Virus record (IMG/VR): IMGVR_UViG_3300045988_171219
Span: 1-18,115 of that record
Length of the DNA: 18,115 nt
Reading direction: 5' to 3' (one strand)
From: a virus
The notes beneath the pieces are model-generated. The model was not told the origin of the DNA, did no database searches, and was given only the letters and a program-made list of their open reading frames with translations. Within the stretch, counting starts at the first letter, position 1; the number at the start of each line of letters is the position of its first letter. The position numbers and the translations under genes were made by a program. This document shows positions 1-16,724 of the stretch, piece after piece.

Positions 1-39
1 GCTATTTCAACATCTTAATAATTTAGATGTTGAAATAGC
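1..39. repeat. Terminal hairpin palindrome (15-bp arms, 9-nt loop)
   Basis: GCTATTTCAACATCT (1-15) is the perfect complement of AGATGTTGAAATAGC (25-39). The loop is TAATAATTT (16-24). Confidence 0.9.
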
Positions 40-162
40 AAAGTTAGTTATGTATATACATTGTATATACCCCCATTAATGCCAATACACTGACAATATA
101 GGCAACTGAGAGGCAAGGGGCTAGGGGTAAGTTGGCAATATGGTGGAGGAAATAGTCAAATT

Positions 163-205
163 GCGTTAAAAAGTGGCTGTTATTCATTGGCAATGGTGTT
201 ATAAT
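163..205 (+). promoter_or_regulatory. ITR-L inward-facing promoter (extended -10) with upstream 16-nt motif
   Basis: TGTTATAAT has TG at 197-198 and TATAAT at 200-205. The -35 is weak (CTGTTA 177-182). The motif GCGTTAAAAAGTGGCT (163-178) ends 21 nt before the -10. SD GAGGAGG (221-227) and ATG 236 follow. Confidence 0.55.
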
Positions 206-235
206 ATTTATATCAATTGAGAGGAGGAAAAGCAT

Positions 236-355
236 ATGGCAAATACAATTGATAAATATCTTAATAATTTAGATGTTGAAATAGCATACCTAAAATATGT
301 TGCTGAACAACTAAAATTGTTAAATGAAGAACTAGAAGAAAGCGAGGTAAAATAA
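236..355 (+). CDS. ITR-encoded 39-aa acidic coiled-coil-like protein (left copy)
   Basis: ATG 236 lies 8 nt after SD GAGGAGG. Translation is MANTIDKYLNNLDVEIAYLKYVAEQLKLLNEELEESEVK with stop TAA at 353-355. It is too short for the ORF track, and an identical copy lies at 17761-17880(-). Confidence 0.55.
   Translation: MANTIDKYLNNLDVEIAYLKYVAEQLKLLNEELEESEVK
258..286 (+). repeat. Internal direct copy of the terminal 29-mer (identical to 12-40)
   Basis: ATCTTAATAATTTAGATGTTGAAATAGCA occurs at 12-40 and again at 258-286, inside the 39-aa ORF. Mirrored copies lie at 18076-18104 and 17830-17858. Confidence 0.9.
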
Positions 356-359
356 AATG

Positions 360-387
360 TTGACAATGAAAATTAAAGTGTTATAAT
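360..387 (+). promoter_or_regulatory. Left early promoter (sigma-A type)
   Basis: TTGACA (360-365), a 16-nt spacer, then TGTTATAAT (TATAAT 382-387). It starts exactly at the inner ITR boundary and is followed by SD AGGAG and ATG 414. Confidence 0.6.
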
Positions 388-413
388 TAATATAAGAAAG
401 GAGAAAAGCATAT

Positions 414-689
414 ATGAAAGAATTTAAAAATGTAAAAATTGCAAATGAAGGTATTTTAAAAATGATGAGCGATTTTAAAATAATTATTGATAAAGAAGAT
501 GGAAAAATATCTGGTGTTATGATAAAAGATAATGAAATTAGAATATACGAAATTTTAATGTCTTTAATGATTTATATTGAAAATATGATTATAAATAAAG
601 ATAATGAATTTAAGTTTACTGATTTAATACAAATATCTGCACAATGTTTATCAATAGTAAAAGCATGTGAAAAGAAAGGAGATAACTAA
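414..689 (+). CDS. Early protein, 91 aa, unknown function
   Basis: ORF with SD AAGGAG about 8 nt upstream of ATG 414. First gene after the early promoter. No motif recognised. Confidence 0.6.
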   Translation: MKEFKNVKIANEGILKMMSDFKIIIDKEDGKISGVMIKDNEIRIYEILMSLMIYIENMIINKDNEFKFTDLIQISAQCLSIVKACEKKGDN

Positions 690-690
690 T

Positions 691-1137
691 ATGATAAGAT
701 ATAAAACTATTTATGATTTATATTCTGAGTGGAGCAACAATGAAGAATTACCTGTTAAGATAATTATGTATGATAATGGAGAAGTTTATTATAGAGTTAA
801 AAATGGTGATTTAAATTGTATGTATCAAAATAAATGTGGACATTTATTGTCTTTTACTAATGAAGTTGATAAATGGAAAACAATAATATGTTATTATTCA
901 ATAAATATTCTAGATGAAACAGAAAAGAAATATTTAGAGAGTGTAATAAAACCTTTTAGAAATAAAATTATACATATTGCAAAATACTCATATAGTGTTG
1001 GTGAATACATATCAATATGTTATAAAGATACGAATAAAATTCATGGTTTTATAAATTTACCTAGTTTTAAATCTAACACCATGTATAAAGGTATGGAAAT
1101 TGGTAGAGAGTATAGTTTAAAGGAGTTAGGAATATGA
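691..1137 (+). CDS. Early protein, 148 aa, unknown function
   Basis: ATG 691 is preceded by SD AAAGGAG (676-682). It is preferred over the track's GTG at 667, which overlaps the upstream gene. Confidence 0.6.
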   Translation: MIRYKTIYDLYSEWSNNEELPVKIIMYDNGEVYYRVKNGDLNCMYQNKCGHLLSFTNEVDKWKTIICYYSINILDETEKKYLESVIKPFRNKIIHIAKYSYSVGEYISICYKDTNKIHGFINLPSFKSNTMYKGMEIGREYSLKELGI

Positions 1138-1391
1138 TAACAAATATAAAATTAACTAAAGATGATAAAAAGTTGTTAAAATCAATGAAAGAAAAATACA
1201 ATTGTGAAATTAATATTAAACCTAGGTTAGGAGTATATTTTATAGAAGGTGATAATTTTGAGATATTAAGTAGTATATTATTTATTCTACTTAAAATGTT
1301 AGAAAGGGAAATAACACTAACTGAAACTCAACGTAACATACTGGTAACAGGGTTTGGTGTTTTAAAAGAACGATTAAATGATAGAGGATAA
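1134..1391 (+). CDS. Early protein, 85 aa, unknown function
   Basis: ATGA start/stop overlap with the upstream gene. SD AAGGAG at 1121-1126. Confidence 0.6.
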   Translation: MITNIKLTKDDKKLLKSMKEKYNCEINIKPRLGVYFIEGDNFEILSSILFILLKMLEREITLTETQRNILVTGFGVLKERLNDRG

Positions 1392-1393
1392 AA

Positions 1394-1669
1394 ATGAGAG
1401 ATGTAATGATGATTAGTATCCCAACAAAAACAAGTTTTAAAGATTTGGAAGAATATATTAAAGATTTTAATAATAAATGTGAGGTACAAGCAACATATAA
1501 TTTTAAAGATAGAATCCTTGAACTTGAACATAAAAAAGATAGATGTATTATAGCATGTAATACTATATTAGACGCAATGATTATTCTTCAAGGTGTGTTT
1601 GTTGGAATATTTAAGTATAATGATACTCAAATAGATTTGAGGGGGTTAAAACATGAGAGTAAAAGTTGA
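1394..1669 (+). CDS. Early protein, 91 aa, unknown function
   Basis: SD AGAGGA just upstream of ATG 1394. Tightly packed within the operon. Confidence 0.6.
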   Translation: MRDVMMISIPTKTSFKDLEEYIKDFNNKCEVQATYNFKDRILELEHKKDRCIIACNTILDAMIILQGVFVGIFKYNDTQIDLRGLKHESKS

Positions 1670-1913
1670 TAATTATTACCGAATTGCTTTACCTAAAAGT
1701 GTTTTAGATATGTTAGAAATCAATAAAGGTGATGAATTAAAACTTGAATATGATAGTATTAATAAAGTTATAACTTTAAATAAAGGTGTAATGAAAGATA
1801 TAAAACATTTAATTAAAATGAGACTTAAAAAAGACATAAGTAAAAGTGAAGAAAATTTTTTAATTAATTTACTTAGTGTAAGTGAGGTTAATAATGATAA
1901 AGATAAAAAGTGA
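1653..1913 (+). CDS. AbrB/SpoVT (MazE-like) family DNA-binding protein, 86 aa; candidate phage transcription regulator
   Basis: The N-terminus MRVKVDNYYRIALPKSVLDMLEINKGDELKLEYD fits the swapped-hairpin AbrB/SpoVT signature (R-I-x-L/I-P-K ... GD-x-L). SD GAGGGGG lies upstream of ATG 1653. Confidence 0.6.
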   Translation: MRVKVDNYYRIALPKSVLDMLEINKGDELKLEYDSINKVITLNKGVMKDIKHLIKMRLKKDISKSEENFLINLLSVSEVNNDKDKK

Positions 1914-2103
1914 TTTTAACGAAGATACAGAACTTGTAGATGTTAATTTTGAAATGAGTAATAGTTCTAATGGTGAGGTTATTAGTGTGGTATGTGTATT
2001 ATATGAATTTTTACTAGAACATGGTAAAACTACAAAAGATATTGAAAGAGAAGTTATAGAAATGTTAAAAACTAGTAAAGATAGAAAGCGAGATAATAAA
2101 TAA
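1894..2103 (+). CDS. Early protein, 69 aa, unknown function
   Basis: ATG 1894 follows SD GAGG (1884-1887). It is preferred over the track's GTG at 1882. Confidence 0.55.
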   Translation: MIKIKSDFNEDTELVDVNFEMSNSSNGEVISVVCVLYEFLLEHGKTTKDIEREVIEMLKTSKDRKRDNK

Positions 2104-2339
2104 TGAATATAGCAATTATATTATTAGCGTTTACTACAATAATTAATGCACTTCATATAAGTTATATTTATAAAGAATTATCAAAAAGAATTGATAAAGA
2201 ACGTATGTATTTAATTGATTTAATACATAATAGATGTAATCAAACTGAATATGAAATTGGTGTGAATATACAAAAAATAATAAATGATATTAAAAGTGGT
2301 AAATTAAAGAAAGACCCTAATAAAAAGAAACAAGATTAA
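2103..2339 (+). CDS. Small membrane protein, 78 aa (N-terminal TM helix, basic C-terminus)
   Basis: TAATG stop/start overlap with the upstream gene. MNIAIILLAFTTIINALHISYIY is a hydrophobic helix. Last gene before the terminator. Confidence 0.5.
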   Translation: MNIAIILLAFTTIINALHISYIYKELSKRIDKERMYLIDLIHNRCNQTEYEIGVNIQKIINDIKSGKLKKDPNKKKQD

Positions 2340-2357
2340 TTGTTTCTTTTATTTTTT
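2323..2357 (+). terminator. Rho-independent terminator of the left early operon
   Basis: An 11-bp stem pairs AAAAGAAACAA (2323-2333) with TTGTTTCTTTT (2340-2350) around a 6-nt loop, followed by ATTTTTT. Confidence 0.7.
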
Positions 2358-2361
2358 GTAT

Positions 2362-2407
2362 TTTAGTTAACATAATAAATATTATTTAGTTAACATAATA
2401 AATATTA
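2362..2407 (+). repeat. Two perfect tandem 23-bp repeats upstream of the late promoter (candidate operator or activator sites)
   Basis: TTTAGTTAACATAATAAATATTA occurs at 2362-2384 and 2385-2407. A third, partial unit (TTTACATAAAC) begins at 2408. Each unit contains ATAATA-AA-TATTAT dyad symmetry and a GTTAAC palindrome. Confidence 0.85.
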
Positions 2408-2436
2408 TTTACATAAACACGAACGTATGTTATAAT
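2408..2436 (+). promoter_or_regulatory. Late operon promoter (near-consensus sigma-A type)
   Basis: TTTACA (2408-2413), a 17-nt spacer, then TGTTATAAT (TATAAT 2431-2436). SD GAGGTGG (2444-2450) and ATG 2456 follow directly. Confidence 0.6.
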
Positions 2437-2455
2437 TATATTAGAGGTGGATAAT

Positions 2456-2782
2456 ATGAAAGATGAAGAATACAACAATTTATTAGAAGAAGTTGTAAAA
2501 GATGATACTAGTATTGAACGAAAACTAGAAATATGTAAAACATTGCAAGATGATAGAAAAGCAAGTTTAGACGCATATCAAGAGTTAAGTGATAATACTG
2601 GTAAGTTACAGGCAGATTATAAAGCCTTGAAAAATCAAAAGGTTACAGAGTTTTTTAATTCTGGTGTTAAAGTTGAGGAAAATACTCAAATTTTAGGAGA
2701 TGAAGAAGATGATGAACCTAAAGAAAAAACTTATGATGAAATTGTTGATGACATGTTAGGAGTGAGTGAAAATGCCAACTAA
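2456..2782 (+). CDS. Scaffolding protein (phi29 gp7-like), 108 aa
   Basis: Acidic, helical protein directly upstream of and overlapping the capsid gene. As recalled, the N-terminal half runs parallel to phi29 gp7 (EE..LL......ER..E....L......Y..L....KL.A). ATG 2456 with SD is preferred over the track's GTG at 2447. Confidence 0.65.
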   Translation: MKDEEYNNLLEEVVKDDTSIERKLEICKTLQDDRKASLDAYQELSDNTGKLQADYKALKNQKVTEFFNSGVKVEENTQILGDEEDDEPKEKTYDEIVDDMLGVSENAN

Positions 2783-4094
2783 GGCAGAAACAAATGGTGT
2801 TGCAATGCTTAATAGCATAAGACAGGCTATTATTGGACAATCTAACGAACTTAATTTTGCTGACAGAATACCTTTAGCAACTCAAGCAAATATTAAAGAG
2901 TTTGGGGCTAGTCTTATGGAATATGAACCCGCTATTAATGCGTTTGTAAACGAACTTGTTAATCGTATAGGATATACGTATATAACAAGAAAAAATATGA
3001 CTAACACCTTAAAATTTTTGAAAAAAGGTAAGTTAGATTTTGGAGATACTATCCAAGATATTATGGTTGATATTGCTAAAGCACATACATTCGCAAGTGC
3101 ACCAAAAACTGGTGAAGAATGTGATGTATTCGCAGTAAATAAACCTGATGTAAAAGTAGCATATTATAGTGTTAATAGAGAGGACCAATACCCTATTACA
3201 ATTAATGAAGATATGTTAAAAATGGCTTTCATGAGTTATGATAAATTATCAAGATTTGTTTCTAGTATTCTTGATAGTGTATATAATGCTGATGAAGTTG
3301 ATGAATTTATTCTATTTAAAAATTTAATTGGTAAGACATTATCTAATTCTTATTTAGTTAAAGTTGATAAACCTATTGATAGAAACACCGCTGAGGCTTT
3401 TAGTGAAAAAATGAGAACATACTCATATGCTATGAGTTTTCCAAGTAGAAAATATAACAGAGCGGGTGTAGCAACTAGAACTAATTTAGAAGAACAATTA
3501 CTAATTATGCGTTCTGATATCGCACCTGTAATTGATGTTAGACAACTTGCTAATAATTTCCAATTAAATTATGGTAAACCTTTAGCGGGAAGAATTGTTC
3601 TTGTTGATGATTTTGGAGATTTTAGTAATATTCTAGGTGGTTTAATTGATAAAGATTTTGCGATGATATATGATGTAACATATAAAATGACTAGTCAATA
3701 CAATGCTAGACACCTATATTGGAATTATTTCTTAACTCATAGACAAGTAATTGCTTCAAGTTTTTATGCTAATGCAGTTGGGTTTACAACAGAAGATGTT
3801 GTATTTGCAATTAATAGCATAAATATAGAACCTAAAGAACAATCTATAAGAAAAGGATATAATGGAAGTGTTGATGTTGTTGTTGACTTTACTGGACAAG
3901 GGGATACATCTTATACATTAACTATAAGTGGTAATGTTTCAAATGCCACTAAGATTGAACAAGACGGAAAAATCTATATTGGTGCTGATGAAACCGCTAG
4001 TGCTATCACTATCACAGCCACAAGCACAGCAAAATTTGGAACTAGTGAACCGAAACCTGTTACTGGTACGGCTAGTGTAAAGGTTAAAAATTAA
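2772..4094 (+). CDS. Major capsid protein (phi29 gp8-like) with C-terminal Ig-like (Big_2-type) domain, 440 aa
   Basis: Several blocks parallel phi29 gp8 as recalled: IPLATQANIKEFG, VNRIGYTYI, SFVSSILDSVYNADEVDEF, LYWNYF and FYANAVGF. The last ~90 aa (YTLTISG...ITITATSTA...ASVKV) look like a Big_2 domain. SD GGAG at 2759-2762; start ATG 2772. Confidence 0.9.
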   Translation: MPTKAETNGVAMLNSIRQAIIGQSNELNFADRIPLATQANIKEFGASLMEYEPAINAFVNELVNRIGYTYITRKNMTNTLKFLKKGKLDFGDTIQDIMVDIAKAHTFASAPKTGEECDVFAVNKPDVKVAYYSVNREDQYPITINEDMLKMAFMSYDKLSRFVSSILDSVYNADEVDEFILFKNLIGKTLSNSYLVKVDKPIDRNTAEAFSEKMRTYSYAMSFPSRKYNRAGVATRTNLEEQLLIMRSDIAPVIDVRQLANNFQLNYGKPLAGRIVLVDDFGDFSNILGGLIDKDFAMIYDVTYKMTSQYNARHLYWNYFLTHRQVIASSFYANAVGFTTEDVVFAINSINIEPKEQSIRKGYNGSVDVVVDFTGQGDTSYTLTISGNVSNATKIEQDGKIYIGADETASAITITATSTAKFGTSEPKPVTGTASVKVKN

Positions 4095-5941
4095 TGGTAA
4101 TTAGACCAACGAACGAGGTGCGTATCTATAAGAACGTACCTTTTTCAATAGATTATAAAAATATTATGGACTTTAGTTCGGTGGCGGAACAGAGTGCATA
4201 TTTTAATTCTTTACCTCAAAAGACATTTAGTAATTTAACATATACTAGAAATAATGGTACAATTATAGTTAATGGAAATCGTGATACATTACTTGATTAT
4301 AATTATATGTCTTTTGTTAATAAAGATTATGGAAATAAAACATTTTATGCTTTTATTACCAATGTTAGATATTCAAGTGCTAATGCTTCATATATAGATT
4401 TTGTAATTGATGAGTGGCAAACATGGTGTTTTGATGTTAATTTTAAAGAAAGTTTTATTGAAAGAAAACATTGTAAAAGGTGGAATAGCGACGGAACACC
4501 CGTAATAAATACGCAAGATGAGGGACTAGATTTTGGTAGTGAATATATTGTAAAAGACCATAGAGAATATAATAACAATCTTTATTGGGTGTGTTATGTT
4601 ACTAGTGTTGAAAATTATGACGCCATTTATTCAAGACCAAAAGATATACCCAACCAATTAGCGGTATTTTATGCCCCAATATATAAAACAACTAATAACA
4701 CGATTGCACAATGGAAATTAGGTGATGTCTATATGGCTTCACATGACACTATTACCAATAGATTTAGGAATAGTGATAAGTTAGTTAATAGGTTAAAAAG
4801 TGTTTTCATAGTAAGTGAACCCCCGTTTAGTTATACTTATACAATAAGTGGTGGCTATATTAATGTTACATCTAATGATTTAAAAGTTACTAAAATTCAA
4901 TGGGGGAGCGAAGAAACCTATTCAATAAATATGGGATATTGGGTAAGTAATAAAAACCCCGCTAACACTTTAAGAACTTTTCCAAAATATGGTAATTTAA
5001 AAAATAATATTACTGAAAGTAAATTATTAATGTTTCCGTATTCATATGTTCAAATTGTAGACGGACAAGGAAATAGTTTTGATATTAAAAATGAATATCT
5101 AGACGATACACAAATAAATGTTCGTACATTTACAAGTGGTGGGTTAAATAGTAAACAAGCCCATATAGTTGAACATTATAGATATAAAGGTGTCAACTTG
5201 AATTATTGTAGGTGGGAACTAGGTAATGGTGTTATTAATAATTTTCCTAATAATTTAACAATTATTGATGACTATTCGGCAGCATACTTGCAAGGAAATG
5301 CTAATCAAATTAATCAATCTGTTAATGCAACACTTAATCAATCTCAACTTAATAATGTTTTAGCACAAAATACAGCAAGGGCTAGTCAATCGGCTTCACT
5401 TGTTAGAGGTGTTGGTGATACTATTGGTGGTGGAATAGTTCAACCTTTAGTGGGTGCTGGTGGTGGAATTAAAGCCTTAGGAGATTATACAGCAACTGTT
5501 ATTACTAGTGAACAACAAGTTGAAAATACTGAATTACAAGGTAATTTAACAAGTGAAAATGCTGTTAAAAGTGCTTTAGCAAAAAAACAAGACGCCCAAA
5601 ATGTGGCGGATAATGTTTCTCTACAAGGTGGAGATGTATATTTTACATTTCAAAATCAATATAATGGTTATTGTCTTGTTTATAAACAAATATCTGATGA
5701 ATACATAAGAGTGTTAGAAGATTATTTTAAAAAATATGGCTATGCATATAATAGAATAGAAACACCACTTTTACGTACTAGAAAATCGTGGGATTATATA
5801 AGATGTATAGACGCAAATATAACGGGGAATATTAATGAAAATTCCTTAGAAAAAATAAAAACTATATTTAATCAAGGTGTAACAATATGGCACACTACTG
5901 ATGTTGGTAATTATAGTTTAAATAATGATGAAAGGACATAA
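4094..5941 (+). CDS. Tail knob / distal tube protein (phi29 gp9-like), 615 aa
   Basis: Blocks colinear with phi29 gp9 as recalled: NVPFSIDYKN, DYGNKTFYAFIT, FKESFIERKH..WNSDGTPVINTQDEGLDFGSEY, ESKLLMFPYSY, DDYSAAYLQGNANQ, YFKKYGYAYNRIE..LRTRK and IFNQGVTIWHT..VGNYS. Confidence 0.9.
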   Translation: MVIRPTNEVRIYKNVPFSIDYKNIMDFSSVAEQSAYFNSLPQKTFSNLTYTRNNGTIIVNGNRDTLLDYNYMSFVNKDYGNKTFYAFITNVRYSSANASYIDFVIDEWQTWCFDVNFKESFIERKHCKRWNSDGTPVINTQDEGLDFGSEYIVKDHREYNNNLYWVCYVTSVENYDAIYSRPKDIPNQLAVFYAPIYKTTNNTIAQWKLGDVYMASHDTITNRFRNSDKLVNRLKSVFIVSEPPFSYTYTISGGYINVTSNDLKVTKIQWGSEETYSINMGYWVSNKNPANTLRTFPKYGNLKNNITESKLLMFPYSYVQIVDGQGNSFDIKNEYLDDTQINVRTFTSGGLNSKQAHIVEHYRYKGVNLNYCRWELGNGVINNFPNNLTIIDDYSAAYLQGNANQINQSVNATLNQSQLNNVLAQNTARASQSASLVRGVGDTIGGGIVQPLVGAGGGIKALGDYTATVITSEQQVENTELQGNLTSENAVKSALAKKQDAQNVADNVSLQGGDVYFTFQNQYNGYCLVYKQISDEYIRVLEDYFKKYGYAYNRIETPLLRTRKSWDYIRCIDANITGNINENSLEKIKTIFNQGVTIWHTTDVGNYSLNNDERT

Positions 5942-5945
5942 TTTT

Positions 5946-6821
5946 ATGATAGCAAAAAAGTTAAAAACAAATGCCCAAGCAAGAAATAATCGTGTTTATA
6001 TTCATAATGTAAAACGATTATATAAAAAGGCTATATCTATGTTTGAGTGGGTAAATATGCCTAAGGAAATAGATACTAGATACTTAGAAAAAACTCTTGT
6101 TGAACAAGGACATATATGTTTCTTTAAAGATGAAAAATTAGATAAATTTATGTGTTTACAATGTACAATCGGTGGTAGGTTTAATGTTTATGACCTACCT
6201 ACTGATTATCATGTGTATACACCTAGTGGATATAATAGAGACCTTGATATGTCTAATAGTGTAGTAATTTATTCTGATTTAGCACATGATAATTTAATGC
6301 CTGTGATATATTATCACGCAGAAAATATATCTAATGTAGAAAGAACTATTGATATAAATCTTAATCAATTAAAAAGACCTTACGTATTCTTAGTACCTGA
6401 AAATAAAATATCAAGTGTTAAGGCACTTTTCAAACAAATTAAAGATAATGAAGAATTAATTATTGGTAGTAATGATTTAAGTGTAGAGGGTTTATCAATA
6501 GAAAATACGATAACACCTAATAACACAATTGATTTATACACATTAAAGAAAAAATATTATAATGAAGCACTAACTGATTTAGGTATATCAAATTTTTCTG
6601 ACGATAAAAAAGAACGTCTTTTAGCGGGTGAAATAACTAGTAATGAAGAAGATGTTTATCTAAACAGAGCCAATATGTTGGAAGCAAGAAAACAAGCATG
6701 TAAATTAATTAATGAAATGTTTGGACTTAATATTGATGTTAAATTTAGATATGAAGAAAATGTAACAATGGACGAAATAGATGAAACTGAAGATTTAGAC
6801 GAGGTGAAAAATAATGAGTAG
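5946..6821 (+). CDS. Portal / upper collar connector (phi29 gp10-like), 291 aa
   Basis: Blocks parallel phi29 gp10 as recalled: FEWVNMPKEID.RYLEKTL, VVIYSD, KKERLL.GEITSNEE and ARKQACKLINEMFGLNIDVKFRY. ATG 5946 with SD AAAGGA (5931-5936) is preferred over the track's ATG at 5925. Confidence 0.88.
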   Translation: MIAKKLKTNAQARNNRVYIHNVKRLYKKAISMFEWVNMPKEIDTRYLEKTLVEQGHICFFKDEKLDKFMCLQCTIGGRFNVYDLPTDYHVYTPSGYNRDLDMSNSVVIYSDLAHDNLMPVIYYHAENISNVERTIDINLNQLKRPYVFLVPENKISSVKALFKQIKDNEELIIGSNDLSVEGLSIENTITPNNTIDLYTLKKKYYNEALTDLGISNFSDDKKERLLAGEITSNEEDVYLNRANMLEARKQACKLINEMFGLNIDVKFRYEENVTMDEIDETEDLDEVKNNE

Positions 6822-7548
6822 ATACACATTAAGATTATCTGATGTATGCGAGATGTATTATGCTGGACGTGAAAAAGAACTTAATAATAGTAGTTTAACT
6901 GAACTTTTAGATAATGGACTTACACCCTTAGAAAATATATTTGAAGTACCTACACCTGATGAGATAATTGAATATGCAAGACCTAAAATTTTTGATTTTG
7001 ACTACCCACTTCCAAATAATAGTGTGGACAAAAAGAAAGAACTTGAAACAAAAATTTTAAAACATTATTATACAAGGGAACTAGGTGCTGACTCATGGGG
7101 TGTATTTAAATTAAGATTAAATGAAAGATTAAATTTAATAATGCCTTACTTTAATGATTTATATAAGACAATTGATTTAATGAACGATAACCCATTAATT
7201 AATAATGAAATAACAGAAACTAAAAATACTAAAAATAGTAATACCAATAGTGGGCAAGCAAGTGCTAACTCTACATCAAACGCTAAAGAAGTATTTCAAA
7301 ATACTCCGTCAAGTCAAATTGGTGATGTTGACTATGCCACCACTATAACAACAAATGAAAATTCTACCACTGATACAAGCGAAAACTCAGGCACTAGTAG
7401 TGGTAATGAAGATATGATAAGAACAATTAGAGGTTTATCAAATTACTCTAAACAAGACATGATATCAAGATATCGTGAAAATATTATAAATGTGGAAGAA
7501 GCAATAATAAATGAACTTTATGATTTATTTCTTCTAATTTATAGTTAG
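6814..7548 (+). CDS. Lower collar protein (phi29 gp11 position), 244 aa
   Basis: Assigned by synteny, lying immediately after the portal gene. SD GAGGTG upstream. Contains a Ser/Thr/Asn-rich central segment. No motif independently recognised. Confidence 0.55.
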   Translation: MSRYTLRLSDVCEMYYAGREKELNNSSLTELLDNGLTPLENIFEVPTPDEIIEYARPKIFDFDYPLPNNSVDKKKELETKILKHYYTRELGADSWGVFKLRLNERLNLIMPYFNDLYKTIDLMNDNPLINNEITETKNTKNSNTNSGQASANSTSNAKEVFQNTPSSQIGDVDYATTITTNENSTTDTSENSGTSSGNEDMIRTIRGLSNYSKQDMISRYRENIINVEEAIINELYDLFLLIYS

Positions 7549-7560
7549 TTATGATATAAT
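7532..7560 (+). promoter_or_regulatory. Possible internal promoter ahead of the fibre genes
   Basis: Extended -10 TGATATAAT (7552-7560) is identical to the 9-mer at 16504-16512. The -35 is weak (TTCTAA 7532-7537) at 17-nt spacing. It lies in the 29-nt gap after the lower collar gene. Confidence 0.35.
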
Positions 7561-7577
7561 AAAATTGAGGTGATAAT

Positions 7578-8222
7578 ATGAATAATCTTAATATATTTTT
7601 TAATAAAAATCATGAAATGGTATTAAATAATGACGTATCACTAGAAGCAATTACTAGTAAAGTAGTTGATTATCTAAATTGTTTAATAGACCGAGAAAAT
7701 GAATTATTAAAAATGTTTGAAAACTTAAAAACAGAAACAAATACATCTATTACAGATTTAAGTAATGCTTTATCTGAATTTGTAAGAGAGCAAAAATCTA
7801 ATTATTTAATTTTTGAAACTGAATTAATAAATAGTCTAGTGGAATATAAAAACGATACAGATAAAGAAATAACTGATAAATCTAATGAAGTAGATAATGC
7901 TTTAAATAATATAGATTTAACTGAGGCTGTAAGTAGTTATTTTACATCACAACTTAATACTGATTATTTTAAAAATTTATATCAAACAATCGTAAAAAGT
8001 GTATATGTTTTAGCAGATTATAGTAGCAACCCTAATATTACATACAATAGTGCTTACTATTATAATACAACTGAAGATGTATTATATTACAAGCAAGGAA
8101 GTGTAGTAAAAGCACTAGATTTACTTGAGAGTTGTTTTTATTATTTTAATGGACATTTATATGTAGTAATAGAAGAAAATGGTAAAAAAGTTTTAAGAGA
8201 GGGTGTTATAACTAATGGATAA
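7578..8222 (+). CDS. Tail/neck fibre-associated protein, 214 aa (coiled-coil N-terminal half)
   Basis: SD GAGGTG upstream of ATG 7578. Lies between the collar gene and the large fibre gene. The heptad-like N-terminus resembles that of the next protein. Confidence 0.45.
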   Translation: MNNLNIFFNKNHEMVLNNDVSLEAITSKVVDYLNCLIDRENELLKMFENLKTETNTSITDLSNALSEFVREQKSNYLIFETELINSLVEYKNDTDKEITDKSNEVDNALNNIDLTEAVSSYFTSQLNTDYFKNLYQTIVKSVYVLADYSSNPNITYNSAYYYNTTEDVLYYKQGSVVKALDLLESCFYYFNGHLYVVIEENGKKVLREGVITNG

Positions 8223-9768
8223 ATACAAGGCGTGGATATCTTCTTTAACACCCTTAGATTTTGCAAATGAAAAATCTTTGGAACAAATTATTTATGAACT
8301 TATTCCTATATTAATGGAAATTAAAAATAATCAAGATAGTAAAACAACAAGTTATGATATATTTTTAACTGATTTAAAGAAAAAAATTAATGATATTAAA
8401 ACAACTATAACTATAAGTAAAACAGAATTTATAAATAGAGAAGATGAAATAAAAACGAATATTTCAAGTAAAGAGCATGAAATAAGTTTAAATATTTTAA
8501 ATAGATTTACGGAAATATTAGATAAAATTAATAATTTTGGAGATAGTTATTTTACTAATAACCCTGATGTATTTACTAAGGGTATATTAGATGTTGCGTT
8601 CTTACTTAGTAATAATACTACACCTTATTCTAAGTGGAATAAAGAAGATAAAGGAATTTATGATACTAATGTTAATTTAGTGGATATTGTGTCTACTCCA
8701 CCCCTTGAAGCAAGTGGATATAGATATTGTACAAGTGATAAACAAGTTTATTATGGAGACCATATCACTACGGACGGACAAATCAATAAGTTAGTAAAAT
8801 ATAAAAATAATGTTCTTTATAAAAAAGCATATGGTGTTTTACAAGAAAAATTATTTCCAACAGGCGAAAATGGATATTTTATAGGTTTTTGTGATATTAA
8901 TAATGCGTGCTTTTTTGCTTCTTCTGTAAGTGGAAGTGAAACAACATACTCAATTAAAATGATTAATTTAACTACTAAAGAATTAACACGATATGAAAAT
9001 TTAGTAATGCCAACTGGTTTTTCAAATGTTTATTTAAGTAACAATAATCATTATATTATTAAAAAATTTAATGAGTATTATTTTATGTTTTATTTAAAAA
9101 CTGGCGAAACTATTCCATACATTGCTAAGTCAACTGATTTAATTCACTGGGCAAATGTAGGTAGTATTGGTGCAACTGGTTTAATAACTCTCAGAGTATG
9201 TAATAATAACTTATATATAACTACTTCATCTTTCGGGTCATACTTATATGATGAAGTAAATAACAAATTTGATAAAGTAACCTATGATAATAACGAAGTA
9301 ATAATTATTGGTGAAATTGAAGAAAATATAGTGTTTGTACCTACCACGGGTGGAAGTATTTATTCAACATCAGACAAAAACTTAGCAAACGCAACTATTT
9401 TTAAAGGTGGTACATATTATGCAACTGGTAATGTTAATAGACTAGAATTTAGTAAAAATGAAAACCTTTTTACAATTTTAGGAGAGCCATACCAATTACA
9501 ATATGATATCTTAAGTGTAATGTATATAACTAATCACGGATATCCTATACATAATATCGAGTTTAGTAACCTTAATGCATTTTTTAACATAGATGATAAA
9601 ACTCTATATTCTATTTATAGTATAAGAGGCTCTGTTAAATATTATCCTACCAAATTTGATACACCTTTTATAGGAGATATTGTTATCAATGAAAATGGAG
9701 ATATTTACGATGATAAATATTTACAAAAACTAGAAATAAAAACTGAGTGGGAGTATTTAGGCAGATGA
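8215..9768 (+). CDS. Tail fibre / appendage receptor-binding protein (phi29 gp12 position), 517 aa
   Basis: Assigned by synteny. Has a coiled-coil N-terminus and a beta-rich C-terminal ~350 aa with Asp-box-like strings (KSTDLIHW, YSTSDKN) that suggest a beta-propeller fold. Confidence 0.55.
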   Translation: MDKYKAWISSLTPLDFANEKSLEQIIYELIPILMEIKNNQDSKTTSYDIFLTDLKKKINDIKTTITISKTEFINREDEIKTNISSKEHEISLNILNRFTEILDKINNFGDSYFTNNPDVFTKGILDVAFLLSNNTTPYSKWNKEDKGIYDTNVNLVDIVSTPPLEASGYRYCTSDKQVYYGDHITTDGQINKLVKYKNNVLYKKAYGVLQEKLFPTGENGYFIGFCDINNACFFASSVSGSETTYSIKMINLTTKELTRYENLVMPTGFSNVYLSNNNHYIIKKFNEYYFMFYLKTGETIPYIAKSTDLIHWANVGSIGATGLITLRVCNNNLYITTSSFGSYLYDEVNNKFDKVTYDNNEVIIIGEIEENIVFVPTTGGSIYSTSDKNLANATIFKGGTYYATGNVNRLEFSKNENLFTILGEPYQLQYDILSVMYITNHGYPIHNIEFSNLNAFFNIDDKTLYSIYSIRGSVKYYPTKFDTPFIGDIVINENGDIYDDKYLQKLEIKTEWEYLGR

Positions 9769-10073
9769 AAATAGAAAAAATGAAAAATCTATATTGGTTA
9801 ATTGGGGTAGTAGCAAGTATTTTAATAATTATTATAACTAATACGTGGAAGTTATCAAAATATCATGAAAAAATAGATAATGCATATAATGAAATATTAG
9901 TAACTATTAAGACTAATGAACAAATGAGTTTAAAATCTATTATATGGAACGATAGTATTCCTATTAGTGATAGATTATCAGCATGTGATATCTATATTCA
10001 AAAAGGTTATAATAGTGTTACGAAAAAACATTGTGAAATTGCTCTATCGAATTACTCAGATAAAAATGTTTAA
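9765..10073 (+). CDS. Holin-like membrane protein, 102 aa (single N-terminal TM, possible dual start MKIEKMK)
   Basis: ATG 9765 follows SD GGGAG (9750-9754). The TM helix is LYWLIGVVASILIIIITNTW. Its position just upstream of the lysins, and the two Met codons separated by Lys residues, resemble holin/antiholin dual starts. Confidence 0.45.
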   Translation: MKIEKMKNLYWLIGVVASILIIIITNTWKLSKYHEKIDNAYNEILVTIKTNEQMSLKSIIWNDSIPISDRLSACDIYIQKGYNSVTKKHCEIALSNYSDKNV

Positions 10074-10086
10074 TACGGAGGTTTTT

Positions 10087-10263
10087 ATGAAAATATTAGA
10101 AAATTTAATTAAAGTAAAAACAATTATAACTCTAGCAACTACTGGTTTATTTATCTATTTAGCAATAAAAGAGATATTACCCGTAGAAACTTCTAGTATG
10201 GTTATCGGCATGGTTTTTACATATTATTTTAATAAAGATAAAAATAAAAATGAAAGTGAGTGA
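10087..10263 (+). CDS. Small two-TM holin-like protein, 58 aa
   Basis: ATG 10087 follows SD GGAGG. The two hydrophobic helices are TIITLATTGLFIYLAI and SSMVIGMVFTYYF, with a charged C-terminus KDKNKNESE. The track ORF from 9967 overlaps the previous gene and lacks an RBS. Confidence 0.55.
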   Translation: MKILENLIKVKTIITLATTGLFIYLAIKEILPVETSSMVIGMVFTYYFNKDKNKNESE

Positions 10264-10269
10264 AGCGTA

Positions 10270-11073
10270 ATGAAAGCAATATATTTTGCTAAAGAAATGA
10301 GATTAAGTCAAGGGTACAATAATGGAAATCATAAGCGTCATGTACCTTTTGACTATCCAATTGATGAAACTTATAATAAACCTAATGGTGTTTTTTATGC
10401 ACCTTTTGATTGTGTGGTAGTAAAAAAGTATAAATCACGTTCTAATCAAATATGGATAACAAGTGTAGAACCTGTTTATACACCAACATTTACTGATTAT
10501 GTTACTATACTTATTGGGCATATTTCACCAAAAGAATTTGATAAAATTAAAGTTGGTGATTTATATAAACAAAAATCACCAATAGTACATGAATATAAAG
10601 ACGGACTATCCACTGGACCTCATAATCATGTAACAATGGGGCGTGGTAAACTAGGTAAAGCATGGAGTGAACACAATGGTGTATGGTGTATTAATACCAC
10701 GGGTGGTGCTAAAAAGCCCGAAGATTGTCTTTATATTGACCCTGATTTTACTAAAATAATTGATAATAAAGGAATAATGTTTGAATTTTTAGATAGTCCA
10801 CACGAACATAGTAGATATTATACATGTATATATGATATGTATATTAATAAAGATATGAGTTTTAATAATCATCAAAAGGTTAAAAATTGCACCCCTCAAA
10901 TGAAACGTGCCTTAAAATATAAAGAACCTAACGCTGATGCAGTAATTAGAAAAGGAACTACCATAACCGCTTTAGATATTATTGATAAAGGAGATATCAT
11001 GTGGATAAAAAATTATAATGGATATGTTTGTTTAAAAGGTAAAAAAGGATATTACCTAACGGAGTATAAATGA
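10270..11073 (+). CDS. Endolysin candidate: M23 (LytM-type) metallopeptidase with C-terminal SH3b-like wall-binding domain, 267 aa
   Basis: M23 signatures HxxxD (HVPFD) and HxH (GPHNHV) are present. The C-terminal ~70 aa (AVIRKGTTITALDIIDKGDIMWIKNYNGYVCLKGKKGYYL) are SH3b-like. Confidence 0.7.
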   Translation: MKAIYFAKEMRLSQGYNNGNHKRHVPFDYPIDETYNKPNGVFYAPFDCVVVKKYKSRSNQIWITSVEPVYTPTFTDYVTILIGHISPKEFDKIKVGDLYKQKSPIVHEYKDGLSTGPHNHVTMGRGKLGKAWSEHNGVWCINTTGGAKKPEDCLYIDPDFTKIIDNKGIMFEFLDSPHEHSRYYTCIYDMYINKDMSFNNHQKVKNCTPQMKRALKYKEPNADAVIRKGTTITALDIIDKGDIMWIKNYNGYVCLKGKKGYYLTEYK

Positions 11074-11675
11074 AGCAAAATCAAAAAATGAGGGGAAAAA
11101 ATGGTTTACAAAATGCCTTATTTCCTTTACAAACACTTAGTTGTTCGAGAGGTAGCCATAAAGGTGATGACTACGCATACGATTTTGTAGGATATAAGGG
11201 CGGAGTTAAAACCCCCGATTGTCCTATGTATGCTCCTTTTGATTGTAAAGTAGTCTATAAAGGAAGTAGTGATGAAAAAGAACCCACGATTGTATGGCAG
11301 AGTATAGAAAAAGTAAATTTTGTAAATGGTGAAGTTGATTATATGTGTATAAGTGTTTCTCATGATGATAATTGGAAAAGTTATAATATAGGTGATACAC
11401 GTAAACAAGGAGAACACTTCGCCAATACTGGGGAGACGGGATATGCTTTTGGAGACCATACACATATGATATGTGGTAAAGGTGTTTTTGATAATTTTTA
11501 CATAACACCAATGGGTGCTTATACACTTAAAAATCAATATGATATGCCTCTATGTTTAGGTGTTAATGATACTATTATTAGAGATACTGGTGGGTTTACG
11601 TGGAGTGAATTTAAAGTAGATAAAAAAGATATAATGCCACTATCATTATGTGGTGCTTTAAAATGGAGTGTGTAA
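11070..11675 (+). CDS. Second M23 (LytM-type) metallopeptidase, 201 aa, no wall-binding domain (possible tail-associated lysin, phi29 gp13 analogue)
   Basis: ATGA overlap with the upstream gene. Has HxxxD (HKGDD) and HxH (GDHTHM). It shares YAPFDC.VV with the upstream M23 protein. Confidence 0.65.
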   Translation: MKQNQKMRGKNGLQNALFPLQTLSCSRGSHKGDDYAYDFVGYKGGVKTPDCPMYAPFDCKVVYKGSSDEKEPTIVWQSIEKVNFVNGEVDYMCISVSHDDNWKSYNIGDTRKQGEHFANTGETGYAFGDHTHMICGKGVFDNFYITPMGAYTLKNQYDMPLCLGVNDTIIRDTGGFTWSEFKVDKKDIMPLSLCGALKWSV

Positions 11676-11678
11676 TTT

Positions 11679-12671
11679 ATGCCTGAAAGTTTTTATTATA
11701 GTCCTCAAAAATTACTTACATATAACTATCTATGGAATATGGTTATCGGAGAACGTGGTAATGGTAAAACATATGCTATGAAAAAATATTTTATTAAAGA
11801 TTTTATAAAAAATGGACATCAATTCGTTTGGATAAGAAGATACGAAACTGAATTTGATGATTTTAAAGAATTTTTCTCTGATATTATAGCCAATAATGAA
11901 TTTCCAAAATATGAATTAAGTGTTAATGGAAAAAAGTTATATTGTAATGGTAAAGTTATGGGTTTTGGTATACCTTTATCAAAAGGTATTACTAAAAAGA
12001 GTGTTAATTATTCTGGTGTAACACATATATGTTTTGATGAATTTTTAATACCTAGAGGTTCAAGTTATCATTATTTAAAAAATGAGGTGTTTCGTCTTTT
12101 TGATTTATACGAAACAATCGCACGTACAAGACGGGTTAAAATGTTTATGGTTGCTAACTCAATAAGTCAAAATAACCCTTATTTTAGAGAATTTAATATT
12201 CGATTAACGGGAGAATTTACTAAAGTAAATGAACAAGTTATTGTTGAAACTACCAATAGTGTTAATTATAGACAATATAAAAAGCAAACAGATTTTGGAC
12301 GTCTTGCTTCACTTACTGGTTATTCAAAATACGCTATTGATAATGATTTTGTGGAGGATAATTATAATTTTATTGAAAAAAGAACTCCTGAGGCAATAAA
12401 CAGATTTAATATTCAATTTGATAAAATAATGTTAGGTATATGGATAGACACTAAAAATGGTAAATTATTTGTATCAAATAAATATAATCCTGAACTTCCT
12501 GTTTATTGTATAACCGTGGACCATTTAAAACCTAATTATCTAATTTTAAAATCTAATTCACACTTTATGAATATGTTAAAAAATGCTTATGAATATGGAT
12601 ATATTTATTATGAAAATCTAAAAATAAAGGGTTATATGGAAAATGTCCAAAAGTATTTGAATATAAAATAA
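11679..12671 (+). CDS. DNA encapsidation (packaging) ATPase (phi29 gp16-like), 330 aa
   Basis: FYYSPQKLLTYNYLWNMVIGERGNGKTYAMKKY contains Walker A (GxxGxGKT), and ICFDEF is Walker B-like. Nearly colinear with phi29 gp16 as recalled and of similar length. Confidence 0.9.
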   Translation: MPESFYYSPQKLLTYNYLWNMVIGERGNGKTYAMKKYFIKDFIKNGHQFVWIRRYETEFDDFKEFFSDIIANNEFPKYELSVNGKKLYCNGKVMGFGIPLSKGITKKSVNYSGVTHICFDEFLIPRGSSYHYLKNEVFRLFDLYETIARTRRVKMFMVANSISQNNPYFREFNIRLTGEFTKVNEQVIVETTNSVNYRQYKKQTDFGRLASLTGYSKYAIDNDFVEDNYNFIEKRTPEAINRFNIQFDKIMLGIWIDTKNGKLFVSNKYNPELPVYCITVDHLKPNYLILKSNSHFMNMLKNAYEYGYIYYENLKIKGYMENVQKYLNIK

Positions 12672-12685
12672 TAATGTGTTATAAT
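12657..12685 (+). promoter_or_regulatory. Promoter-like element P1 overlapping the end of the ATPase gene
   Basis: TTGAAT (12657-12662), a 17-nt spacer, then TGTTATAAT (TATAAT 12680-12685). Confidence 0.4.
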
Positions 12686-12691
12686 ATATAA

Positions 12692-12773
12692 AGGGAGAAG
12701 TTACGCTATATGCTTTTATCCGTTTAACTTTTTTAATCTCCCTAAGATATAACTATATGTTATATCCTTTTTT
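12692..12773 (+). ncRNA. Small RNA unit 1 (~80 nt), or alternatively the structured 3' UTR of the late operon
   Basis: A long imperfect hairpin pairs AGGGAGA (12692-12698) with TCTCCCT (12737-12743) and AAGTTA (12698-12703) with TAACTT (12725-12730). The terminator at 12746-12773 follows. No credible ORF, only a 5-codon ATG frame. Confidence 0.3.
12746..12773 (+). terminator. Rho-independent terminator (late operon / sRNA unit 1)
   Basis: Stem GATATAAC (12746-12753) pairs with GTTATATC (12759-12766) around loop TATAT, followed by CTTTTTT. Confidence 0.7.
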
Positions 12774-12774
12774 C

Positions 12775-12803
12775 TTGACTTAAAAACTTTTATATGTTAT
12801 ATT
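12775..12803 (+). promoter_or_regulatory. Promoter P2
   Basis: TTGACT (12775-12780), a 17-nt spacer, then TGTTATATT (-10 TATATT 12798-12803). It abuts the preceding terminator's T-tract. Confidence 0.55.
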
Positions 12804-12809
12804 ATAGAT

Positions 12810-12944
12810 ATGAAACGGGTAAATAAGCACGCATAACACAAGTTCTTATTTCTCTATAAAACCTAACCTGAAAAAAGTTGAATTTCTCTATACCCGTTTC
12901 ATCTATTAATCTATATGAAAAAGCAACTGATAAGTTGTTTTTTC
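12810..12944 (+). ncRNA. Small RNA unit 2 (~135 nt); pRNA candidate by adjacency to the packaging ATPase
   Basis: A 12-bp closing helix pairs ATGAAACGGGTA (12810-12821) with TACCCGTTTCAT (12891-12902). Two CU-rich direct repeats ATTTCTCTATA lie at 12848-12858 and 12882-12892. The terminator hairpin pairs 12917-12928 with 12933-12944. No SD-preceded ORF. Confidence 0.45.
12917..12944 (+). terminator. Terminator-like hairpin ending sRNA unit 2
   Basis: GAAAAAGCAACT, loop GATA, AGTTGTTTTTTC form a 12-bp stem with one G-T pair. The 3' arm itself is T-rich. Confidence 0.5.
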
Positions 12945-12954
12945 ATTTGTAATA

Positions 12955-12983
12955 TTTACATTAATACAAACATTTGTTATAAT
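12955..12983 (+). promoter_or_regulatory. Promoter P3
   Basis: TTTACA (12955-12960), a 17-nt spacer, then TGTTATAAT (TATAAT 12978-12983). Confidence 0.6.
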
Positions 12984-12989
12984 ATAAAT

Positions 12990-13076
12990 GGTAACATCTT
13001 ACCTCGAGTAACTTTCATGTGTTACCTAAACCTTAAGAAATCTTAAGAACATTTAAGAAATCTTAAGGTAATTTTA
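12990..13076 (+). ncRNA. Small RNA unit 3 (~87 nt)
   Basis: The 5' hairpin pairs GGTAACA (12990-12996) with TGTTACC (13020-13026), with alternative pairings involving TTACC (12999-13003) and GTAAC (13008-13012). A long terminator hairpin at 13030-13069 follows. Confidence 0.45.
13030..13075 (+). terminator. Rho-independent terminator ending sRNA unit 3
   Basis: ACCTTAAGA (13030-13038) pairs with TCTTAAGGT (13061-13069), and TCTTAAG (13041-13047) pairs with TTTAAGA (13052-13058, with one G-T pair). Loop is AACA and the tail is AATTTT. The stem is built from two 15-nt direct repeats of TTAAGAAATCTTAAG. Confidence 0.55.
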
Positions 13077-13117
13077 GTTAAAGTGTGGCTTTTATTTTAT
13101 CAATAAAGTGGTATATT
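13075..13117 (+). promoter_or_regulatory. Replication-operon promoter (extended -10 plus 16-nt motif)
   Basis: The motif copy TAGTTAAAGTGTGGCT (13075-13090) ends 21 nt before TGGTATATT (-10 TATATT 13112-13117). This is the same geometry as in the ITR promoter. Confidence 0.45.
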
Positions 13118-13121
13118 TAAT

Positions 13122-13272
13122 TTACAAGCAGAAAAAATATAAGTATTTAAGAGTATAACTCTTTTGTACTTAACAAAATCTTTAAGGGAGTTTTGGCAAA
13201 AATTTCTGCTTGTAATATTAATTAATATTTATCCCTTAGAAAAATTTTTAAATGAAAGCGAGGTGAGAACAA
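13122..13272 (+). promoter_or_regulatory. Structured 5' leader of the SSB / terminal protein / polymerase operon
   Basis: A 13-bp stem pairs TTACAAGCAGAAA (13122-13134) with TTTCTGCTTGTAA (13203-13215). Nested hairpins pair 13140-13145 with 13167-13172 and 13149-13153 with 13159-13163. Loop segment TAAGGGA (13183-13189) is complementary to TCCCTTA (13232-13238). An AU-rich stretch leads to SD GAGGTGA (13260-13266). Confidence 0.45.
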
Positions 13273-13686
13273 ATGAATAACATGTTGACAGTTATGGACG
13301 AAATGCAAGAAGCCTCTAAACAAACTTATTGTTCTATGTTAATAAATAATGAAGAAGATAAGAAAAAATTGTTTAATCTTTTAGGTAATAGTGATACAAG
13401 AGTTAGTGATAACTTAGATAAAACTATTTCATTAAAAGATGTAGTGCTTCAAAAATTCCCAAAAGTTGATGAAGAAACAGGGGAACTAACATATAGTGTT
13501 CGTGTAATCTTAGTTGATAAAGACGGAAAAACTTACGCTAGTGGGTCAAGAGGACTTTATAGAAGTGTTTTACAACTTATTCAATTAGTTGGTGAACCTA
13601 ACACATGGACTAACCCTATCGACATTAAAGTTGTTGAAACTAACATTAAAAATGGTGGTAAAACTTTTGTAATCAAGACAATATAG
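13273..13686 (+). CDS. Single-stranded DNA-binding protein (phi29 p5-like), 137 aa
   Basis: First gene of the replication operon. As recalled, the C-terminal ~100 aa are colinear with phi29 p5 (FN....S..NL.D.TI ... I...DG..Y...S ... L..LV ... KVV......G..F). Confirmation by HHpred is needed. Confidence 0.55.
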   Translation: MNNMLTVMDEMQEASKQTYCSMLINNEEDKKKLFNLLGNSDTRVSDNLDKTISLKDVVLQKFPKVDEETGELTYSVRVILVDKDGKTYASGSRGLYRSVLQLIQLVGEPNTWTNPIDIKVVETNIKNGGKTFVIKTI

Positions 13687-13700
13687 TATTTGTTCTTACC

Positions 13701-13734
13701 AAGGGGTATAGTAATATATACCCCTTTTATTTTT
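13701..13734 (+). terminator. Intra-operon terminator or attenuator between SSB and terminal protein genes
   Basis: A 10-bp GC-containing stem pairs AAGGGGTATA (13701-13710) with TATACCCCTT (13717-13726), followed by TTATTTTT. Confidence 0.6.
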
Positions 13735-13748
13735 AGGAGTTTTAGAGC

Positions 13749-14807
13749 ATGGCTTTAAGAATAAGTAAAAAAGAGAAAAAGTGGTTATATCAAAAAAATG
13801 CTAGTGCAAACAGAAAAGTAAAAAGACTAGCAACTGAGTTTAATATTCAAAATACATTTAAAACAATACGCCCCTCATCATTTAGAACAAGAAAAGAATT
13901 AAATGATTATAAGAAAAGTTTATCTACCTTTTTAAAAAGAAGCACTCATAAATATGTTAGTGGAACGGGTACATATGTTAAATATGTTGGTAATAAAGAA
14001 ATAATCGCAAGAACCGCTATCCCTCAAAAAGAATTTACCGAAATAAGAAAAATTGTTAATCGACGTAATGAACGAGTACGTAGACAAGTTGCTTTATTTA
14101 AATATAAATCTTATGAGGTAAAGGGTGTTACAATTAAAGGTTCATCAACCTATGGACAAATATTTTCTCTAAGACCACCTAAACACGAACTTCAATTTAA
14201 GTATTCTCAATATCATAAAATTGATATTGATAAGTCTTATTTTACCTCCGAGCGAGCGTGGAAAAAATTTGCTTATGGTGTTAAGAAATATCAAACCCCA
14301 CTATCAATTTTAGAAAGGCAATTAATAATGAAAAAGAATTATATAGAAGCCCTACATAATACTTTTGGAAAAAATGCTGACCTTTTAACTGAACTTGTTG
14401 ATAAACTATCAATTGATGATTTTATGACATTTTATGAAAGTGAGAGATTTAGTGATTTTGATTATATTTATGATGAGGTTTTACGTGATGAGGTTTTAAA
14501 ATACATGACGGAACATATGGTTAATTATGTAAAAGAATTAAAACCTAGAGGTATTACTGATAGAGACGTATACGAGGCTTTAGAATATGTTAATAGTTTA
14601 ACCGAAGAAGCAATAACCGAAGAATACAACAAAGGTAAACTAGGTGGTAAACGTATTAAGTTTAAAGTTAAAGGTGAAAATGGACAAACTTATTGGAATT
14701 ATATCGACTTATCACCCACAGAGGTTATTGAGGTTGAAAAAGGTAAAGCCCTTGTTGAATTAAATGATTTTGAAAATAGAACCCATTATATAAAAATAGG
14801 AAAATAA
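13749..14807 (+). CDS. Terminal protein (phi29 gp3-like), 352 aa
   Basis: Lies immediately upstream of the DNA polymerase gene and has a basic N-terminus. FRTRKELNDYKKSLSTF parallels phi29 TP FETRAQFNKWKEQASSF, and DDFMTFYESERFSDFDYIYDE parallels the DDFYELF...SFEEFDSE priming region as recalled. Confidence 0.75.
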   Translation: MALRISKKEKKWLYQKNASANRKVKRLATEFNIQNTFKTIRPSSFRTRKELNDYKKSLSTFLKRSTHKYVSGTGTYVKYVGNKEIIARTAIPQKEFTEIRKIVNRRNERVRRQVALFKYKSYEVKGVTIKGSSTYGQIFSLRPPKHELQFKYSQYHKIDIDKSYFTSERAWKKFAYGVKKYQTPLSILERQLIMKKNYIEALHNTFGKNADLLTELVDKLSIDDFMTFYESERFSDFDYIYDEVLRDEVLKYMTEHMVNYVKELKPRGITDRDVYEALEYVNSLTEEAITEEYNKGKLGGKRIKFKVKGENGQTYWNYIDLSPTEVIEVEKGKALVELNDFENRTHYIKIGK

Positions 14808-14808
14808 T

Positions 14809-16506: not shown

Positions 16507-16512
16507 TATAAT
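16483..16512 (+). promoter_or_regulatory. Promoter P4, embedded in the last codons of the polymerase gene
   Basis: TTTACA (16483-16488), an 18-nt spacer (or TTACAA with 17 nt), then TGATATAAT (TATAAT 16507-16512). The TG of the extension is part of the TGA stop codon. Confidence 0.55.
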
Positions 16513-16517
16513 AGATT

Positions 16518-16681: not shown

Positions 16682-16724
16682 AGTTTTCAAAAATATCGAA
16701 CCCCCCTTTATAGAAAAAATTTTT

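Follow-up and report, generated by a model that had tools for sequence, protein, structure and literature searches.

Where does the heritable genome of this phage end? The question is raised by the window (the whole stretch of DNA analysed here, 18,115 bp), a complete phi29-like podophage contig (27% G+C), which starts with a hairpin and only then reaches a sequence resembling the termini of known protein-primed phages. The first-pass annotation had left two readings unranked: the end linked to the terminal protein (TP) may lie at 40/18076, with bases 1-39 as a fold-back product, or the phage may have genuine snap-back termini. The first reading is favoured here and is given a concrete origin, based on an internal donor copy, the sole + strand AAAGT[AT]AG motif, the TP, polymerase and single-stranded DNA binding protein genes, and published work on phi29 (PMC4974454, PMC4150772); the second is unlikely. 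The heritable genome probably comprises bases 40-18076 (18,037 bp, with inverted repeats of 322 bp), and the outer 39 nt would then be a non-heritable add-on formed by template switching and snap-back.

A terminal hairpin outside a phi29-like motif

The features of the two contig ends are as follows.

1-39, + strand: left terminal palindrome, arms 1-15 and 25-39, loop 16-24 TAATAATTT; read here as a probable non-heritable fold-back add-on
18077-18115, - strand: right copy of the palindrome, mirror of 1-39; should the assembly graph have collapsed the repeat, the two copies are not independent
40-47, + strand: proposed true TP-linked 5' terminus, AAAGTTAG; sole + strand AAAGT[AT]AG, with a template 3'-TTT that permits sliding-back
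40-361, + strand: left inverted terminal repeat proper, 322 bp, holding a complete 39-aa gene
17755-18076, - strand: right inverted terminal repeat proper, from the 361-nt inverted-repeat identity
236-355, + strand: 39-aa ORF (MANTIDKYLNNLDVEIAYLKYVAEQLKLLNEELEESEVK) within the repeat; second copy at 17761-17880, - strand

Direct inspection of the sequence showed that bases 1-15 (GCTATTTCAACATCT) and 25-39 are exactly reverse-complementary, so the perfect pairing described in the first-pass annotation stands. Its statement that the end lacks a reiterated base is also correct: the left end opens with GCTA at base 1. Bases 18077-18115 are the reverse complement of 1-39, and the right-end loop on the + strand is AAATTATTA. 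The flipped loop is therefore present as claimed, but it is no separate observation, since the contig ends form a perfect inverted repeat over 361 nt (1-361 is the reverse complement of 17755-18115), which yields it. The same symmetry accounts for the suggested likeness to parvoviral flip/flop ends.

The 15-bp perfect stem exceeds all other hairpins in the window, and the longest stem found in 100 Markov-1 random genomes was 14 bp. Folded as single-stranded DNA, the terminal hairpin has -13.4 kcal/mol and z = -8.35; none of 200 shuffles folded as well (0/200). A chance palindrome is ruled out by these stem lengths and this folding score. The second-longest perfect hairpin of the genome is located at 17336-17369, with a 14-bp stem and a 6-nt loop (ACTAATAAGATATG ATTTAC CATATCTTATTAGT), inside a 74-aa ORF (17186-17410, - strand).

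Immediately inside the palindrome, bases 40-47 (AAAGTTAG) are identical at 7/8 positions to AAAGTAAG, with which the records of phi29, Nf, and B103 open, and the resemblance to the phi29-group terminus noted earlier is thereby borne out. The phi29 record annotates its bases 1-6 as terminal repeat. The AAAGT[AT]AG motif has a single + strand match in the window, at base 40, with its mirror at 18076; two other matches lie on the - strand. A reiteration at the extreme 5' end is absent at base 1 (GCTA) and present at base 40 (AAAG). The template 3' ends under the two alternatives are 3'-TTTCAATC for a terminus at 40 and 3'-CGATAAAG for the other.

Three genes of the replication machinery were identified.

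13273-13686, + strand: phi29-type single-stranded DNA binding protein (SSB), PF17427; phrog_6243, E 3e-26
13749-14807, + strand: putative TP, 352 aa, directly upstream of the polymerase gene; phrog_6358 'DNA terminal protein', E 6.9e-7, profile positions 21-253 of 267
14809-16506, + strand: protein-primed family B DNA polymerase (PolB), 565 aa, PF03175 DNA_pol_B_2

The PolB shares 42-45% sequence identity with the polymerases of Nf, B103, M2, and Hungatella CH17P1, and its alignment to the Nf, B103, and M2 enzymes covers 95% of the length. The putative TP has no Pfam match on record. Its residues 15-263 match the PHROG profile; the protein is about one third longer than the 267-position profile, and the C-terminal ~90 residues lie outside the match. 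Further phi29-type genes encode a gp16-type packaging ATPase, a connector, a tail knob, and a capsid protein. The window thus contains a PolB, a TP gene beside it, and inverted terminal repeats, as in phi29-like protein-primed replicons. Replication would be phi29-like, with TP-primed initiation on the template 3'-TTT, sliding-back, and TP carried on 5'-AAAGTTAG ends.

Sliding-back in the phi29 system requires a terminal repetition of at least 2 nt, and variations of this mechanism are common to GA-1, Nf, Cp-1, PRD1, and adenovirus (review, PMC4974454). These data bear on the reading in which the palindromes are genuine and heritable, that is, a duplex genome of 18,115 bp with TP on G1 and a snap-back telomere. 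Under that reading the template would be 3'-CGAT, which has no reiteration for sliding-back or jumping-back (PMC4974454). Moreover, a phi29 origin with a self-complementary 5' hairpin overhang on the displaced strand was essentially inactive in vitro (PMC4150772). The palindromes are nevertheless identical and complete at both contig ends, their boundary coincides with the contig end, and the stem is far beyond chance, as a heritable telomere would have it.

The internal donor and the two junctions

The source of the hairpin was found inside the terminal repeat.

12-40, + strand: copied part of the add-on, ATCTTAATAATTTAGATGTTGAAATAGCA, equal to 258-286; A40 is common to the genome end, giving a 1-nt ambiguity of the junction
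258-286, + strand: internal donor, within the 39-aa ORF; same 9-nt loop, 4-bp inverted repeat ATCT/AGAT, kept in four relatives

The two segments are identical at 29/29 nt, the longest exact match of bases 1-60 elsewhere in the window. The first-pass annotation had overlooked this copy, which changes the interpretation of the ends. As single-stranded DNA the donor folds no better than its shuffles (z -0.04). The left arm (1-15) corresponds to the bottom strand of the donor, with the switch point exactly at the ATCT/AGAT mini-repeat, and the two source segments of the hairpin overlap by 4 nt only. The inverted junction of the hairpin therefore lies at a 4-nt microhomology (ATCT); the direct junction has a microhomology of 1 nt, the single shared A (A40 = A286) that joins the donor segment to the genome end. 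The donor lies 218-246 nt inside from the proposed end at 40, in the same terminal repeat. The hairpin is a chimera with two junctions, a fold-back at a 4-bp internal repeat fused to the genome end, because 12-40 copies 258-286, where the stem is only 4 bp.

Two other sources were considered and rejected. An adapter or vector origin is ruled out by the 29-nt identity of the add-on to the phage's own gene. Quasi-palindrome correction was discarded, as the left flank of the donor agrees with the arm at just 4/11 positions (by eye).

A strand-displacing polymerase most likely added the outer 39 nt by two template switches. The nascent strand would run off the genome end (...CTAACTTT-3'), and its last T would re-pair with A286 on a single-stranded copy of the same repeat, 246 nt inward. 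After 28 nt had been copied, from 285 down to 258, the new 3' end ...AGAT could snap back onto the just-made ATCT, using the natural 4-bp repeat with its 9-nt loop. Self-copying of 11 nt would then convert the 4-bp stem to the perfect 15-bp stem. An assembler may retain such a rare extension, as a linear end gives no competing path, and the add-on would appear at both contig ends, the repeat being one graph node. We infer this order of events, the enzyme, and the non-inheritance of the add-on; the polymerase may have been the phage PolB, acting in the cell, or else phi29 polymerase or repair enzymes used to prepare the library. The add-on itself must exist in real molecules.

Chimeras of this kind are known from strand-displacement amplification (MDA), in which more than 85% are inverted, mostly intramolecular, and primed at 2-21 nt of complementarity (Lasken & Stockwell 2007, PMC1855051). 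The hairpin shares with them the inverted junction, the short priming complement (4 nt, ATCT), and a nearby donor on the same molecule, 218-246 nt off. It differs in its second junction, with an overlap of 1 nt, and in its product, a short, capped end whose boundary is defined, rather than a long inverted duplication. Template switching by phi29 polymerase also occurs in vivo (Murthy et al. 1998, as cited in PMC4974454). The subgenomic phi29 molecules so formed involve the same enzyme family and template switching in TP-DNA replication; as summarized in that review, they measure 1-8 kb and arise at internal transcription-linked sites, whereas here 39 nt were added at the very end.

Some features speak against the add-on reading. 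It requires two switches within 39 nt, the second with a 1-nt overlap only, and the contig stops exactly at the base that completes the palindrome, as a real terminus would. A long head-to-head dimer junction was also rejected, since the contig would be expected to run past base 1. If a de Bruijn assembler with k >24 is assumed, the reads would stop at base 1, which speaks against long head-to-head palindromic molecules.

A purely computational artefact, with a wrong assembler path through the small inverted repeat and no such molecule, is very unlikely. Graph assemblers are known to fail by producing hairpin-like contig ends, and the repeat is collapsed in other assemblies of the strain. However, 30 of the 21-mers starting in 1-39 have no match on either strand in the remainder of the genome, novel words occur at both junctions even at k = 9, and the source segments share just the 4 nt given above. 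No de Bruijn path makes novel junction words without reads, so the add-on sequence must have been in the reads. The pure assembly artefact allowed for in the first-pass annotation was abandoned on account of these junction 21-mers. Chimeric reads would carry the diagnostic sequences CAACATCTTAATAATTT and GAAATAGCAAAGTTAG.

Collapsed repeats, related contigs, and the remaining explanations

The same strain (100% identity) is present in ENA and Logan assemblies besides the JGI contig (datasets SRR6474215, ERZ1745074, and ERZ27293935). The SPAdes contig NODE_2401 equals window 359-17757, the MEGAHIT contig k119_135222 begins at window 240, and the Logan unitigs span 329-1440 and 16755-17787. These three independent assemblies break at the repeat border. 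The terminal repeat is real, yet it forms one collapsed node in short-read graphs, and its outer tip is written onto both ends. The right-end hairpin therefore gives no independent evidence, and both hairpins count as one observation. The protein of the 39-aa ORF was also called on four other contigs; a 63-aa ORF within the repeat has no entry on record. A perfect sigma-70 consensus promoter (360-387; TTGACA, 16 nt, TG-TATAAT, 12/12) begins exactly at the inner border of the left repeat and is directed into the left gene block.

Relatives were searched by several routes. By megablast, the whole window matched none of 50,697 phage records, and blastn of 1-420 for distant relatives returned promoter-like noise only. 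Exact-pattern scans with terminal 25-/30-mers and the repeat 21-mer identified one relative in IMG/VR; the same scans found nothing in the JGI metagenomes and GTDB genomes. In the closest relative, IMGVR_UViG_3300045988_173088, the TP is 99% identical; the contig of this relative begins at the equivalent of base 45, without a hairpin. Two other relative ends begin at the equivalents of 77 and 92, and those of more distant relatives are divergent and truncated. All these contigs start inside base 40; none passes 40 and none reaches the terminus, so they neither confirm AAAGT nor exclude the hairpin. The donor sequence is kept in all compared relatives, and a terminal hairpin is absent from their contigs. 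A terminal hairpin of at least 10 bp was found at 0/115 true contig ends from 80 IMG/VR phages with a related PolB, in which long terminal repeats (99-559 nt) are common. The hairpin is thus not a trait of the lineage, and assemblers do not produce it systematically.

In the closest relative, what the two ends have in common stops near window position 124, with a partial match to about 155, and the 39-aa gene is located at one end only; here it is present at both. Repeat length therefore differs sharply between near-identical strains (361 nt here, or 322 nt without the add-on; compared were 1-361, 17755-18115, L006, and L007). This contrast suggests that the terminal repeat has recently grown by end-to-end copying.

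That virion DNA really bears the 39-nt palindrome, as a rebuilt 3' hairpin cap or as a heritable snap-back terminus, is unlikely. For the heritable form the doubt is stronger, and we consider it highly improbable: besides the missing reiteration and the inactive hairpin origin, the 29/29 donor identity and the perfect stem imply an event too recent to diverge, and identical ends are expected from graph collapse of the repeat. The hairpin-free contig of the relative with the 99% identical TP also argues against it, weakly, as that contig begins at the equivalent of 45.

The cap form is improbable as well, to a lesser degree. A substantial share of the phage DNA would bear a 3' hairpin cap, the phage polymerase repeating both switches after run-off. 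TP would be attached to A40 at the 5' end, and the 3' strand would carry a nicked 39-nt hairpin; fold-back synthesis would halt at 39 on meeting the TP-linked 5' end of the other strand, and the cap would be rebuilt in each round, not copied. Such a cap might account for the end of the palindrome at the 39|40 junction and for the contig end at base 1. It would also agree with a donor in cis, 246 nt off in the same repeat, with the switching of phi29 polymerase in vivo (Murthy 1998, as cited in PMC4974454), and with the presence of the add-on in physical molecules. Several points oppose it. Caps are without precedent among protein-primed phages, and none of the 115 related ends shows one. The phi29 polymerase exonuclease trims 3' protrusions, as observed for those of 5 nt (PMC4150772). 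Standard ligation libraries would hardly capture a nicked end of this kind, and a programmed switch would have little to rest on in a microhomology of 1 nt.

The hairpin is probably no genuine biological feature. If the add-on reading holds, the genome is to be trimmed to 40-18076. Short fold-back chimeras could then be present at the ends of TP-phage genomes assembled from metagenomes, and completeness calls based on inverted repeats would accept such chimeras and mirror them onto both ends. The locus would also offer a fully traceable two-step template switch at a linear end, with donor, microhomologies, and product in one sequence. If instead the palindrome were carried by virion DNA, hairpin-bearing termini would be known for the first time from a protein-primed phage, one whose ends are not set by sliding-back alone, with a bearing on end protection and regeneration in protein-primed replicons.

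Comparison with known linear replicons, and further candidate elements

Compared with phi29, Nf, and B103 (Salasmaviridae), the window has the near-identical motif at base 40 (AAAGTTAG versus AAAGTAAG) with its AAA reiteration, the TP gene directly upstream of PolB, and the phi29-type SSB, gp16 ATPase, connector, and capsid protein. There are also clear differences. The PolB is only ~45% identical, the repeat has 322 bp versus 6-8 bp, the TP has 352 aa, no Rfam pRNA match is found, and 39 extra bases lie outside the motif.

Covalently closed hairpin telomeres (of the N15, Borrelia, or poxvirus type) or rolling-hairpin ends of the parvovirus type could also be envisaged, as reading round a closed end would yield a terminal palindrome with an asymmetric loop. 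This explanation is the least credible of those considered. No HUH nickase or Rep, protelomerase, or ResT domain is on record for the called genes between 240 and 17757, and the full set of TP, PolB, and SSB is present. The palindrome stops at 39, without the continuation into 40 onward expected of a strand turn-around, and its arms are copied from an internal gene (258-286). Parvovirus telomeres likewise have a terminal palindrome with an asymmetric loop; the present contig differs in showing one loop orientation per end in a single consensus, in lacking an HUH Rep, and in belonging to a dsDNA tailed phage with TP and PolB.

The archetypal telomeres of Streptomyces also combine TP-capped linear DNA with terminal palindromic sequence; their palindromes are tightly packed in the first ~150 nt and are accompanied by the Tpg and Tap proteins (PMC4513846). 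Here a single palindrome was found, the only stem of at least 10 bp in 1-450 (apart from 452-482), in DNA of 27% GC. Replication by PolB would be initiated at the ends, in contrast to the internal origin and end patching of Streptomyces. The analogy drawn in the first-pass annotation is not sustained, given one palindrome without a packed array, no Tpg or Tap gene, and a TP candidate that matches a phage TP family.

The search for Rfam pRNA found no match anywhere in the window. The packaging ATPase and SSB genes are separated by the largest non-coding gap (12672-13272), in which a candidate small RNA is located at ~12806-12945 (+ strand). The candidate is closed by a 12-bp helix (AUGAAACGGGUA/UACCCGUUUCAU), includes a hairpin that resembles a terminator and is followed by a U run, and folds with -34.2 kcal/mol (z -5.9). 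A promoter-like sequence (TTGACT-17-TATATT with TG, 12775-12803) precedes it, and a few pairs are kept through double changes in the 63%-TP relative L012. A divergent packaging RNA is one possible identity for this candidate.

Four copies of a 22-nt unit (TAGTAACACTTGTTACCAAAAG), with the palindromic core GTAACA-CT-TGTTAC, are located at 16725-16838, in the intergenic stretch that separates PolB from the leftward genes. Judged by their sequence, these repeats look like operators for a regulator, and a candidate might be the AbrB/MazE-like protein encoded at 1653-1913 (weak Pfam match).
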